Below are positions 1,589 to 64,000 of a DNA stretch of 64,000 bases, piece by piece. The stretch is from Squalus acanthias (taxonomy: Eukaryota). The notes below the pieces were generated by a model. The model worked only from the letters and a program-made list of their open reading frames with translations. It was not told the DNA's origin and did no database searches. The stretch spans positions 58,714,001 to 58,778,000 of the forward strand of contig CM059440.1 of assembly GCA_030390025.1 (NCBI GenBank). The letters are read 5' to 3'. Numbering within the stretch: position 1 is the first letter of the stretch; each line of letters begins with the position of its first letter. The translations under genes and the position numbers were made by a program.

Positions 1589-2001
1589 CTTTTGTAAACC
1601 GACCACCAACACTTAGCTAACACTTTAGCTCCACTTAGAGCTTTTAAAGATGATCAGTATAAATACAACTTTACAATCTACACCTTTTTAAAAACCTGAC
1701 CAACTGCATTCGACAGTGACTGTAATAATGGCGTTCCTTGACATGAATTTATTTACGGCACATTAAATAATCATGTATTTTACAAATGCTTTTACCTCAC
1801 ATTCGATCTATGTAATTTAAAAGCAGAACGCTGAATCTTTAAAGGCAGTAAAGATGAAAGCATTGTGGAAGAATCGCCCAAAAATATTTCAAAGTGGGCA
1901 AAGTCCGTGCCTGTGTTCCAAACCAAAACATATTTGCCCAATTTCCCAGATTCAGTGTTAATGTTGTCATGTACCAAGCTATAAACAGATGGGTGACTTG
2001 C

Positions 2002-2147
2002 CTGTTGCTGCCCTTGCTGTGCCTGTGACGCAGCCTGCTGGTTTGCAGAGTTGTTAGCAGCTGCTGCTGCAGCTTGCTGCTGGAAGAGATTCGCTGGATA
2101 AACACCCCATGGAACACCGTAGTACTGAGGTGGAACCACTGCAGGGC
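2002..2147 (-). CDS. PUM1: PUM1 exon 10 ([25 protein letters not shown]...QQGQQQ)
   Basis: 146 nt; acceptor tgtgttag, non-canonical donor CAG|gcaagt; in frame with exon 11. Confidence 0.93.
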
Positions 2148-3945: not shown

Positions 3946-4242
<297 letters not shown>

Positions 4243-19575: not shown

Positions 19576-19684
19576 CTGAAGCTCCCCATGCACTGTCCCG
19601 CCACTGATCCCCAAGAAATATCCCTTTAGGTCCATCCTTGCTTGTATCATCAGACTCCCAGAATTTCTTACCAGGCAGAAGCTG
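19576..19684 (-). CDS. PUM1: PUM1 exon 4 ([36 protein letters not shown])
   Basis: 109 nt; acceptor acacgcag|CAG (NAGNAG), donor CAG|gtaagg. Confidence 0.95.
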
Positions 19685-29564: not shown

Positions 29565-29702
<138 letters not shown>

Positions 29703-58500: not shown

Positions 58501-59294
58501 GTAGGGACAACCCAATTAGCCGTAGCTTCCCTGTGTGTGTGTTTTTAATTTGTTCTTGGCATGTGGGCAATGCCGAGCATTTGTTGCCAATCCCCAATTG
58601 CTGAAAAGGTGATGGCTGGCCTTCTCTTTGAGCCACTGCAGTCTTTGTGCTGATGGTGTATTGATGATGGTGTTAGGCGAGACATTTCAGGATTCTGACC
58701 CAGTGACAATGGGGAGGGGGAGAATTTTTACTCCTGATCGTTATCTAGTGAATCTTGCTGGAATGAGCTCATGTTGGGTGAAGACGGGATGGACCTGGGC
58801 TGAAACATCCCACCGTTAACCAGCACTGTACAGTGTCGCACATTAAGAATTGCTGCTTTGGCAAAGTACTAGACGGAGCCTGTGAAACCATTCCCGAGCA
58901 CGATTCAAGATTTAGTGCCCTCGGGAATGCTTTACATCCAATGAATTACTTTTGAAGTGTCGGCACTGTTGGCAAATGCAACAGCCAATTTGCACACAGC
59001 GAGGTCTTACTAAAAAAGCGATAAATGACCAGATAATCTGTTTTTGATAGTGTTGCTTGAAGGATAAATGTTGGCCTGGATACCAGGAGAACTCCCCTGC
59101 TCTTCTTTGAACAGTGCCACAAGATCTTTTACGTCCACCAGAACAGGCAGAGAGGGCCTCGGTTTAACGTCTCATCTGAAAAATGGCATGTGCAAAGGAG
59201 CTCCACTCCCTCAGTACTGCACTGAAGCGCCTTGGGACATTTCACTATGTTAAAGGTGCCATATAAATGCAAGTTTTGAAGTGGCAGCCCAGGT

Positions 59295-59985
59295 TCTGGG
59301 CTCAAGAACTCCAAGTGTGGTCAACCTTGGTTTGATGACACTTGGGAGCACTGTGCGCAGTTCTGGACTCCATATTATATTTAAAAAAGAGGCACCGGAG
59401 AAGGTGCAAAAAAGATTCACAAGGATGATACCAGAACCAAGAGGATATACTTATCAGAAAAGGCTGAACAGACTGGGCTCTTTACTCTAGAAAAGAGAAG
59501 GCGGAGGGGCGACCTGATAGAGGTCTTTAAGATTATGAAAGGTAGACGTAGAGAAAATGTTTCCATTTGTAGGGGACACAAATATAAAAATCACCAATAA
59601 ATCCAATAAGGAATTCAGGAGAAACTTCTTTACTCAAAGAGTGGTAAGAATGTGGAACTCATTACCAATGTTCCCTTTAAGCTGCTCTGGAGGTTCCGCG
59701 CAGCCGGCTCACCGGCTTTTAAATGGAAAAACCGTGCATGCGCAGAATTTTGAATGGGCCGCACAGCCCAAAATAAATTAGAGGGAACATTGCTCACTAC
59801 CACAAGCAGTAGTTGAGACGAACAGTATAAATACATTCAAGAGGAAGCTAGATAAGCACTTGAGGGAGAAAGGAGAAGGGTAGGGTTAGATAAGGAGGGC
59901 TGGGAGGAGGCTTGTGTGGAGAATAAACACAGGCACAGACCAGTTGGGCTGAATGGCCTGTTTCTGTGCTGTGGACTCGATGTAA
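59295..59985 (+). mobile_element. CR1 3' portion
   Basis: EKVQKRFTRMIPE, RRNFFTQRVVRMWNSLP, 3' UTR gaatggcctgtttctgtgctg. Confidence 0.85.
59666..59792. mobile_element. hAT MITE nested in CR1
   Basis: TIRs caatgttccctttaa / ttagagggaacattg; TSD ctcattac / ctcactac. Confidence 0.85.
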
Positions 59986-60226
59986 CTCTCGCCAAGTCCT
60001 GGAGTGGGGCTTGAACCCACCACGCACGACCTTCTGACTCAAGAGATTAAATAATATCCTTAATTTCAGGCCCATTGATGGAATATAGGTTTATATTTGG
60101 GATTGTTAGGGCAGCAAATACAAACCGAGGTCTTTATGGTCTGCAGTGTGTTTTTGGCTGTATGCTATGAAGGGTGAGCGACTGGGAAATGTCTGAGCGC
60201 TTGGTACACAAAGGAAAGGCACTGAC

Positions 60227-60679
60227 CTGGTGATGTTCAACATGGATGCTGTCTCCTGTCGGCCAGCGGTGCTTCCCATTGTAACCGCCGCCTCCGCCTC
60301 CTCCTCCCCCGCCACCCCCGCTGCCGCCACCCCCGGCGACTCCACTGCCTCCGCCTCCTCCCAGATGCTCCCCGGGCTGCCGCTGGAAGAAATAATCCAC
60401 CATGGCATCGTCCTGCGAGCGGCCCGCGGCCAGCGCAAGCGCCGGCACCACCACCGGCACGGGAGGCCCCATCGAGCCGGGGCCTTGCGTGGAGACCGAG
60501 GCGGCGGCCAGCGCCTGGGAGGCGGCGTGCTGTTGCTGCTGCTGGGGGCCGGCGGCGGAGGGTCCTGTTAACACCACGGGCATGTTGTGAGCGACGCTGT
60601 TACCGAGACTGTCCTGAGGCGGCGGCTGCTGCTGATACTGCTGCTGGGGGAGGGAGTCCTGCCAGAGCACCTCATTCAT
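60227..60679 (-). CDS. PUM1: PUM1 exon 2, coding part (MNEVLWQDS...[17 protein letters not shown]...polyG...[16 protein letters not shown]); the exon itself begins at 60716
   Basis: 453 nt, donor CAG|gtcagt, phase 0 into exon 3; acceptor ttttgtcttgcag at 60717. Start codon uncertain (see findings). Confidence 0.9.
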
Positions 60680-60705
60680 ACCTTAAAAACACAGGGAACA
60701 ACCAT
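60676..60705 (-). other. Upstream [12 protein letters not shown] overlapping the main ATG
   Basis: ATG GTT GTT CCC TGT GTT TTT AAG GTA TGA; the TGA (60678-60676) overlaps the ATG at 60679-60677. Confidence 0.7.
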
Positions 60706-62954
60706 TCCACCTACACCTGCAAGACAAAACATACAAAAATAATAAAGCACAGCTTAAAATATTCATCGTATGCAAACATTAAAAAGTGCATTAAATTTTT
60801 TAAAAAAGCAAAATTTTTGCTTTTAATAAAATGTATTTAAAATCCAAGTTTTTTTTTTAAAAAACATGCAAAAATTGCTTTCAACATGTTCTTACTGAAA
60901 ATGGGCTTTGATGGCACGTCAACATGCAAATCCCACCCCATTTGCTGGAATATATTTTACTGTAAATTTAAAAATGATCACATGAAAATGTGACTTGTGA
61001 ATAGAAAGGAACTTCCCCTCCCTCCCCCCCACCCCTTTTTGAAAATAGGCTTTCAGAACTAAGTACATGAACATGCAAGTCCATCCCCAATATTTTCCAG
61101 GTATTAAAATCAAGATACGTTTAACAAATGGAAACTAGAATTGAACAGGAAGGGTTTTGTTCAAAATGGCTTTGAACAGCACGTGAATTCCCCCTCAATA
61201 TACCCCATGTGTTGCAATCTATTTTACAACATTAAAAAAAATCATCAAACGCATACATTCAGGGGCACATGCCAGAAGAACATGTATTTTTTAAATTAAT
61301 TACATCTTTGAATAGCACATGTCCATGTAATCCCTACCCTCTATTTTCCATGTGCCAAAATACAAGTTCACCATTATATAAAAAATTAATATGGAAATTC
61401 AAAATACAGTAATGATATTTGACATGCACTGAGCATGCAGTCCCCCATGTGTCTTGGCACTGCAGAATATACAAATTCAACAAAGAGAAACAGGCCTAGA
61501 TTTGAAACTGAAATGCACATTGTGTAAAATATTAAGTGCTTGGTGGGGGATATTCTGCTCTTACTGCAAATCTCCAGCCTTCCCAGCATTTTTTCATAAT
61601 CTCTACTGAATGGAAAGTGTATATTTTAAATAATGGTTTTGAATAGCAGAGGAACCTGCAATCTCACCTTAATATCCATGTGTTTGAACGTGTAGTTATT
61701 AAAAATATACAAATTCTAAACAGGATTGACTGGAAGGTTTTAAATTGCAGTTTGATTAAAACAAGCTTTCTTCACTCTTAATTCCATGTAATTCACACCC
61801 CTCATCAACTGTGCTTTTTATACACGCAGCCTCATAAGAAAAGGAACATTAAGCCCAACATATATTGTATTAAAAACATTAAAACAAGGGTGAGGGGAAT
61901 TATATTACCCAACTAATCAAATTCATGCAGTTCATACATCTTTCAACAAAACACTGTTCCAGTTAAAATATTTGCTTTGCACAATTACACCGAAGAGAAA
62001 TGATTCAATTCACTGGGATTTTTGTTTAATCGAAATGGATTTGTGTACAACTATCTTTTATCGTCAGTTGAATCTACTACATCCACTTGGAGCAAAAAAA
62101 GTGAGGTTCAACATATACTTCAAAACAAAAGTTGTTTTATCAATTAATGCAAAAATATACATCCTATAAACATATACAAGGTAGAAAAATAAAAATAAAA
62201 ATTGTCTTTTAAACCCAAAGTAAGCTTCAGGAACAGCTACAGTTGGGACATATGCAGAAAGCATACAACTTTCCTAATTACAGGCCTGGCACCAACACCT
62301 ACAAAGAAAAAAAAATCCCCAACATCTGAATTTTAGACAATACCAGAGCTCAGTTTCTGGTCTAAATATTGAACCCCTATATTCGCCCTATCAGCATTAA
62401 AAAACATGGGAATTATAACTTACTAAAATGTTTATTATGTTTCCTCTTAGGCAACTGTTTATACCTTATATCTTAACCAAATAACTCATTCCACCAAGAA
62501 AACTAAAATTAGATCAAAAATGTAATAAGTAGCAACATATATCATATAAAAATCTTTTACACAACAAATCTTAATCTTACACAAGTGCAATGCCCTCCAC
62601 ATCGAATACACACACCACACACATTTCACAACCCACTTTTATTCAAATTTACATTTCAAGCTTTTAAAAAGTAAACAAATATTTCAATTGATGTTGCAAT
62701 TATGAAAACAGCCCCAGTATTTCATGCACTGAAACTAGCCTTCCTTCCCCATTGTAAAAGCCTCGTTTCCTGAAATAATTGAACCAGCACATTTTCACAA
62801 ACTTTAACCATCTGGCTTTGTGCAGAGGTGGACGAGCCCTTAAAATTTACCCCCTTTTCCCCCCCTTAAAATGCACCCCCCGAGTTACAATGCTGCTTGT
62901 CCTTTCCCCTCCCCCCCTACTCCCCTATACACACACACACACACATTACAACAA

Positions 62955-63215
62955 TGGCCCCCGAGCCCAAAATACTGGGCAGAAAGGGGCACTGGAGGAA
63001 AACGAGCCGTACAAATCCTGCCCCTACGGCGCCCCGCCGCCCCCCAATATCGGGCTCTCCGGGTCGCTGGGTGTTCCAGCTGTCGATCGGTGGGCTCGGG
63101 ATGGGATACTCACAGGCAGAGCGGGCGGATTGCAGCGGATTGCGGCCCCTCTCAATCCTTCTTCTTCACAACATGGCGCTACACTGGGACACTCGGGCGC
63201 AAAGCATCCTGGGTG
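62955..63215 (-). promoter_or_regulatory. CpG-rich promoter-proximal region with an Inr-like CCAGT and a YY1-type motif
   Basis: Local CpG enrichment against an AT-rich background; CAACATGGCG at 63169-63178 on plus. Confidence 0.6.
63114..63185 (-). other. PUM1: Putative non-coding exon 1 of PUM1
   Basis: Starts AGTGTAGCGCCATGTTGT, resembling the human PUM1 mRNA 5' end as I recall it. Ends CGCTCTGCCT|gtgagt (consensus donor). Lies in a CpG-rich patch. Confidence 0.75.
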
Positions 63216-64000
63216 AGGGCAGCCTCCCTCCCCCACTCTGCCTTTGTTTTACTTGAAGCTTTACTTACAGTCTCTTGGAAACAGGTGACAGCCTCAGCCC
63301 CAAACCCTTCCCTCCAATCATTTAATAATTAGATATTCATATTCTTCATTTCTACAAATGTGTTAAAAGTCAATTTAAAAAGGGAGAGAGGAGGGGGGGA
63401 AATCACCAGCCCAATACCTCCCTTTAAAGGCACTGACAATATAATCCTTGCAACCACAAATTAGGCCTAATTTTTCTTCTTGTAGATTTACACTATGACC
63501 TCCAGTAATTTAACACTCATTAAAAAGAAAGCAGAAAAACAAATGGAGTGTAACAGCTACCTGAGTCACAAGACTTTGTCAGCAAAAGGTTGGAAACTAC
63601 TAAAAGTGCTGCTGATTTTAACAGCATAAATTTGCCTTTCCATACACAGCTTTGATAAACTATCACGCAATTAAATATGGATTTTCGTTGTTGACCAACG
63701 TCGCAATTGCACTCATGCTAGTAAGAGCAAATCATGCTGGGGCGAGAAGAATCGAATGTAGTGCACTGGCACAAAGAGCTGCACAGTGCAATTTGCAGCC
63801 GGCAGCACCCAAATTATACCAAAGGCTGCAAACTGCACACAAACCAGAGGTGCAAATGTGTATACAAGAGTGGGGGGAAAAGGGTGTAAGGGGCAATTTC
63901 AGAATTTGGAACAGCGGCAGAGGGGAACGGAAGCATGTCAAAAAAAGGGGGCGGCTGGACACATCCCCAACAGTTGTACTTCTGCACTCTTAGTCAGGTG

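Follow-up and report, generated by a model that had tools for sequence, protein, structure and literature searches.

Several well-described systems share parts with the arrangement reported here, whose components are each of known kinds: an overlapping upstream ORF (uORF), an alternative donor and possibly a dual-specificity splice site. According to one review, uORFs that overlap the main start codon out of frame repress the downstream protein and are bypassed through leaky scanning (PMC10275272). The same review places reinitiation after short uORFs at starts that always lie downstream of the uORF stop, with a distance of 79-140 nt for preproinsulin. Overlap of stop and start as AUGA is a known layout for coupled termination-reinitiation, as in caliciviruses and influenza B, where the ORF ahead of the restart is long in the cases reviewed and, in most of them, an RNA element located upstream, the TURBS, is required (PMC10275272, PMC5972666). 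Dual-specificity sites, used as both donor and acceptor, go back to Zhang et al. 2007 (via PMC4232841) and are rare, with 112 events in one database table. PUM1 itself is described as dose-sensitive (PMC10233381). Human PUM1 carries a moderately repressive region, RD1, at amino acids 1-149, and human PUM2 is without it (PMC7962487). In rat, splice variants of Pum1 exon 2 bring in premature stops and are predicted to undergo decay (PMC8728526).

The window studied here is a stretch of 64,000 nucleotides from the spiny dogfish, Squalus acanthias, in which PUM1 lies on the minus strand. The gene was assigned to PUM1 by its exon 2 peptide, which is 96% identical to Mustelus PUM1, and by a PUM1-type motif; the paralog on contig C9 instead carries RSQDDATVGYFF, like bichir PUM2. 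The exon 2 stretch has a single match in the genome. Exon 2 contains two start codons, here termed ATG1 and ATG2, and our preferred reading, to which we assign a probability of roughly 0.6, is that a donor 24 nt past ATG1 sets the role of that codon, which would be the start of a short PUM1 where the donor is joined to exon 3 and would open a uORF otherwise. The features concerned are as follows, all on the minus strand.

63108..63116, minus: predicted donor of PUM1 exon 1, CCT/GTGAGT, last exonic base 63114, 8/11 U1 matches
60227..60716, minus: 490-nt long form of PUM1 exon 2, with a phase-0 donor at its end; the PUM2 exon likewise begins 11 nt ahead of its first ATG
60682..60716, minus: putative exon 2a, short form, 35 nt, with ATG1 and the eight codons MVVPCVFK, the same N-terminus as Mustelus model P0159
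60676..60705, minus: uORF of the long mRNA, ATG1 context GGA ATG G
60685..60701, minus: pyrimidine-rich tract within the uORF, before the candidate acceptor, 0.82 pyrimidine
60676..60684, minus: AAG/GTATGA, likely alternative phase-0 donor and candidate acceptor, 8/11 U1 matches; junction present in P0159
60677..60679, minus: ATG2 (context GGT ATG A), from which the long protein begins as MNEVLWQDS
60673..60675, minus: ATG that abuts the stop of the uORF and shares its frame, 35 codons, weak context
60581..60583, minus: next in-frame ATG (MPVVLTG), candidate reinitiation start, 92 nt past the uORF stop
29601..29669, minus: PUM1 exon 3, phase-0 acceptor, in frame with ATG2 (long) and ATG1 (short)

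The first intron ends in TTGCAG/ and exon 2 begins at 60716. ATG1 (60705) lies 11 nt inside the exon, and ATG2 follows 26 nt further on in a different frame, which agrees with the positions given in the initial annotation. That annotation had also described an out-of-frame peptide from ATG1 ending on ATG2; this held, with the length corrected to nine codons, MVVPCVFKV, the stop TGA at 60678-60676 having two bases in common with ATG2. From ATG2 the frame stays open for 151 codons up to the phase-0 donor at 60227. ATG1 is in the stronger context of the two. Its frame has the layout of a uORF, with an upstream AUG that is out of frame, ahead of the main AUG and not closed before it. The resemblance to overlapping repressive uORFs thus lies in a short, out-of-frame reading frame with a strong AUG that ends on the main AUG. 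It differs from them in that the overlap is minimal, and in that the upstream AUG is an ancestral start that likely also begins a coding isoform.

For the 5' side of this exon, the matching PUM2 exon ends in a similar context (CCC/GTGAGTATC), and from sequence and paralog conservation we infer PUM1 exon 1 and its joining to the acceptor at 60716. The first intron so defined is ~2.4 kb, compared with ~264 nt for the predicted first intron of PUM2 (L002 1013-1276), and the second intron is ~30.5 kb. The predicted exon 1 of both paralogs also contains GCGCCATGTTG (window 63166-63174, minus strand; L002 916-933, plus strand), which opens tiny uORFs, ML-stop in PUM1 and MLLLL-stop in PUM2, and could represent either another conserved uORF or a motif of the promoter; we take it to resemble a YY1 site. 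No tandem repeat was found in 59000-64000.

The relationship between the two start codons was compared with that in other Pumilio genes. In the S. acanthias PUM2 paralog the first ATG is likewise 11 nt into the exon, the two ATGs are 27 nt apart and the protein reads in frame as MNIPCVLLG-MNEVAWQQ. Both methionines are also in frame in hagfish (MSIPCVLG-MNEATWQ), in Nematostella (MSFPCVLG-MHEVGW), in bichir PUM2, and in a blenny and a frog entry. The likeness of MVVPCVFK to the human-type start MSVACVLK, noted in the initial annotation, extends to PUM2, hagfish and Nematostella and is not a matter of chance. Since the outgroups and PUM2 are in frame, the frameshift in shark PUM1 is derived, and the proposal that a former in-frame N-terminus became a uORF is borne out. 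By these sequence comparisons, the tandem-methionine N-terminus predates bilaterians. Separately, Crassostrea Pumilio (P0457, P0458) is annotated from MNEVSWQ without an upstream MxxPC peptide, like shark PUM1.

Next, named PUM1 models of cartilaginous fishes were tallied, 60 in all and drawn from 16 species. A start at MNEVLWQD was found in 44 of these, covering 13 species; the remaining starts were MPVVL (six, Cetorhinus), MDEL (three) and others (four), and three models contained MVVPCVF. Annotation pipelines normally extend a protein to an upstream in-frame ATG, and such an extension is present in the PUM2 and bony-vertebrate PUM1 entries. Among the 60 models there was no in-frame fusion of ATG1 to ATG2, save in one flagged LOW QUALITY. 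The three models with MVVPCVF, from Mustelus, Scyliorhinus canicula and Callorhinchus, all exit the frame at one position. In the Callorhinchus model P0168 the frame is left straight after MVVPCVFK and 17 long-form residues are skipped; the implied intron of ~53 nt, deduced from two protein sequences, is probably a modelling artefact. The S. canicula model is the flagged one, reads MVVPCVFGMNEV without the Lys, and from MNEV on shares 99% identity with its S. torazame counterpart; its flag presumably refers to the ATG1-ATG2 site. Because the three MVVPCVF models exit at the same place and the MNEV starts lack an extension, the PUM1 frameshift is very probably real and common to sharks and chimaera. 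Models from rays and skates show no in-frame extension, the evidence for the frameshift itself coming from sharks and chimaera, and together the models suggest that the out-of-frame layout is common to cartilaginous fishes.

These comparisons bear on whether an originally in-frame start was lost through a single wrong base in the assembly, the main alternative raised in the initial annotation. The spacing of 27 nt in the PUM2 of this genome speaks for an error, as one added A or G would restore the PUM1 frame, while lengthening the T run by one T would produce a stop and no fusion. However, the annotated protein begins at MNEV in 13 other species and has no in-frame extension, Mustelus and Callorhinchus each have MVVPCVFK and MNEV starts in separate models, and the sole fused model is the low-quality one that lacks the Lys. 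With the layout repeated across cartilaginous-fish models, an assembly error is scarcely credible. Among the other models, all six from Cetorhinus lack the MNEV start and begin at MPVVL, and three of them (P0151, P0152, P0156) have an extra segment between exon 2 and exon 3, ending ...RPGIL before VRSMDE.

The GTATGA that spans ATG2 was then considered as a splice site. Exon 2 cut at this donor is 35 nt long, the part that begins with ATG1 measuring exactly 24 nt, and, exon 3 being phase 0, the join from 60682 to 29669 is in frame. The same join is made in a Mustelus RefSeq model, XP_078094380.1 (X9, P0159), in which the ATG1 peptide runs directly into exon 3 and the rest of the protein is identical to the long isoform P0131. 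Donors were scored against the U1 snRNA of this genome, at least 42 genes for which stand in tandem, many ~3.39 kb apart, on the PUM1 contig (G000:C16:12.10-12.36 Mb). The GTATGA site had the highest U1 match count of any GT in exon 2 and, among 4003 GTs, placed within the top 6-8%. At -5.7 kcal/mol its duplex was weaker than that of every one of the eight other PUM1 donors scored, which ranged from -7.3 to -11.5; a minor donor would be expected to show this. The site thus offers a GT with U1 complementarity that is in frame with exon 3, as an alternative 5' splice site should. Because the Mustelus model makes the join and S. acanthias PUM1 would be in frame across it too, ATG1 likely starts a short PUM1 and would act as a uORF solely in the long mRNA. 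The initial annotation had read GTATGA as both a plausible acceptor and a plausible donor, with acceptor use deleting ATG1; the one transcript model that bears on it, a predicted one from Mustelus, speaks for donor use, which keeps ATG1 instead. A fusion of the ATG1 and ATG2 frames by removal of a tiny intron (11 nt, from 60681 up to the AG that precedes 60670) was also considered and rejected, as so short an intron would not be spliced.

The short-join junction was present in 1 of the 60 models, this being the one predicted RefSeq isoform of Mustelus. Searches with the first 40 residues against cluster representatives gave no second short-form protein among the best 120 of 883 and all 30 of 30 matches listed. 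A profile search of 50%-identity representatives, which recovered the outgroups, gave no further shark short form among the 150 of 204 matches listed. In a cluster look-up, 40 of the 67 members of the largest cluster were covered, 15 of these 40 being listed. It could be that ATG1 is solely a repressive uORF left by the conserved frameshift, the weak donor yielding the short isoform only rarely and as splicing noise. The weak U1 pairing and the single model would fit this, as would the strong context of ATG1, given that overlapping out-of-frame uORFs typically repress (PMC10275272). However, the donor is precisely in phase 0 with respect to exon 3, which has a one-in-three chance of arising at random, and MVVPCVFK is identical in the chimaera and two sharks, an identity that fits protein constraint but would fit slow evolution too. 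On balance, a purely repressive role for ATG1 appears unlikely.

The same AAG/GT could also serve as an acceptor, as in the switch proposed in the initial annotation, so that ATG1 is removed and a uORF-free mRNA becomes the main source of long PUM1. From the sequence such use is plausible: just 1.5% of the 4193 AGs on the minus strand have a tract that scores as high, and the 27 nt ahead of this AG contain no other. Acceptor use would also account for the escape of the long protein from a strong upstream ATG. However, the site ends in AAG, unlike the CAG or TAG of the window acceptors that fit protein exons, it is preceded by two AGs at distances of 29 and 35 nt, and the -3 base of ATG2 would become T rather than G, weakening its context. 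No branch-point consensus match was found within 60 nt of the candidate acceptor, and several real acceptors are likewise without one. Protein models cannot reveal acceptor use because it alters the UTR only. The site resembles described dual-specificity sites in its tract, AG, donor-like GT and position near the 5' UTR, and differs in being supported as a donor only, with acceptor use putative (PMC4232841). Considering also how rare such sites are, acceptor use as the main source of the long protein is distinctly improbable.

Other splice features were seen in the window, all on the minus strand. At the end of one PUM1 exon the donor is of the non-canonical GC type, CAG/GCAAGT (window 2000-2004). 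Exon 4 has a tandem CAGCAG acceptor (window 19681-19684), and Mustelus models show both MGEQLLP and MGELLP. Two further acceptors lie 12 nt apart (window 4082-4094), the first a donor-like CAG/GTATGT, and models exist with and without the residues between them.

For the long mRNA, the AUGA overlap had been taken in the initial annotation as support for termination-reinitiation. Under that scheme, ribosomes would step back one base at the AUGA and restart at ATG2, so that the uORF would feed the long protein. The locus shares with the viral TURBS systems the AUGA overlap and a stop-to-start distance within the described range (~20 nt or overlapping). It differs from them in its upstream ORF, which has nine codons and is not long, and in having no UGGGA motif within the 120 nt before the stop in the predicted exon 1 plus exon 2 leader. 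Coupled reinitiation at ATG2 is therefore very unlikely. Because restarts after short uORFs are downstream and no UGGGA is present, ATG2 is likely reached via leaky scanning.

In the preferred reading, donor choice would work as follows. When the full exon 2 is retained, ATG1 would open the nine-codon uORF, which is predicted to damp the long protein; ribosomes would get to ATG2 chiefly by leaky scanning beyond ATG1 with its strong context, whereas ribosomes that have translated the uORF would leave or restart at the MPVVL Met. The 92-nt gap to this Met is inside the preproinsulin range (PMC10275272), and the Met is also found in bony-vertebrate and chimaera PUM1. When exon 2a is joined to exon 3, ATG1 would be the true start of a short PUM1. 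As in known alternative 5' splice site isoforms, one exon has two phase-0 donors and the same next exon; here, however, the predicted isoforms use different AUGs in different frames within one exon, and donor choice would for that reason change the productive AUG. The rat Pum1 exon 2 variants differ in their premature stops, the shark join being in frame, and the text of that report does not give the position of the rat site (PMC8728526). An ancestral start out of frame and re-used via a donor that holds both its stop and a second start was not found in the literature searched, which included few subscription journals, and no report joining PUM1, uORF and shark was found there.

The consequences for the protein can be predicted from the sequence. 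In the short form, 8 residues would replace ~152 N-terminal ones (~144 fewer). In gibbon PUM1, exon 3 starts at residue 122 and, as RD1 spans amino acids 1-149, the short form would miss most of the human-RD1-like region, giving a PUM2-like architecture; human PUM2 is without RD1 (PMC7962487), as the predicted shark short form mostly is. The predicted short product would retain the ancient MxxPCV motif, which the long form has lost.

The bony-vertebrate N-terminus may bear on the history of this site. There, PUM1 (MSVACVLK) is in frame and has no second Met. The pattern CVLK-x-K-x-V was found in 243 of 484 proteins, teleosts among them, 218 of the 243 reading MSVACVLKRKAVL. Residue 8 is Lys in sharks and bony vertebrates and Gly or Leu in the outgroups. 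Removal of the leading GT from the 11-nt shark spacer leaves ATG AAT GAG, from which RKA is three single changes away; this GT loss is the best fit among 44 distinct 2-nt deletions, with 252 of 6859 tripeptides equally close. The 8-codon spacer of hagfish and Nematostella already lines up MNE with RKA, so that the RKA-MNE comparison cannot separate the histories. The lengths are explained just as well by direct descent from an in-frame ancestor with 8 codons, so only the shared Lys8 favours re-fusion, as a hint that bony-vertebrate PUM1 begins with a uORF fused back onto the protein. In such a history, GT loss in bony vertebrates would abolish the donor and join the uORF to the protein, with MNE later decaying to RKA. 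We suggest only tentatively that the frameshift arose before the jawed-vertebrate split, that the 35-nt uORF/donor/acceptor switch was kept in cartilaginous fishes, and that loss of GT re-fused the uORF in the bony lineage.

For annotation, at least two public models (P0144, P0168) appear forced across the frameshift, and the S. canicula gene is flagged as low quality though its frameshift is probably real. Constant 26-nt spacing across cartilaginous fishes, together with a AAGGTATGA that never varies and substitutions that are silent in the frame of the uORF, would mean constraint on the site. If the preferred reading is true, splicing would determine which form of dose-sensitive PUM1 is made and how much of it, with one start codon capping the long form and starting a form without RD1, a testable coupling of splicing and translation. 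The locus would then be a natural experiment on the roles of RD1 and of the ancient MxxPCV N-terminal motif and, should the re-fusion history also be true, the human-type PUM1 N-terminus would derive from a re-fused uORF.
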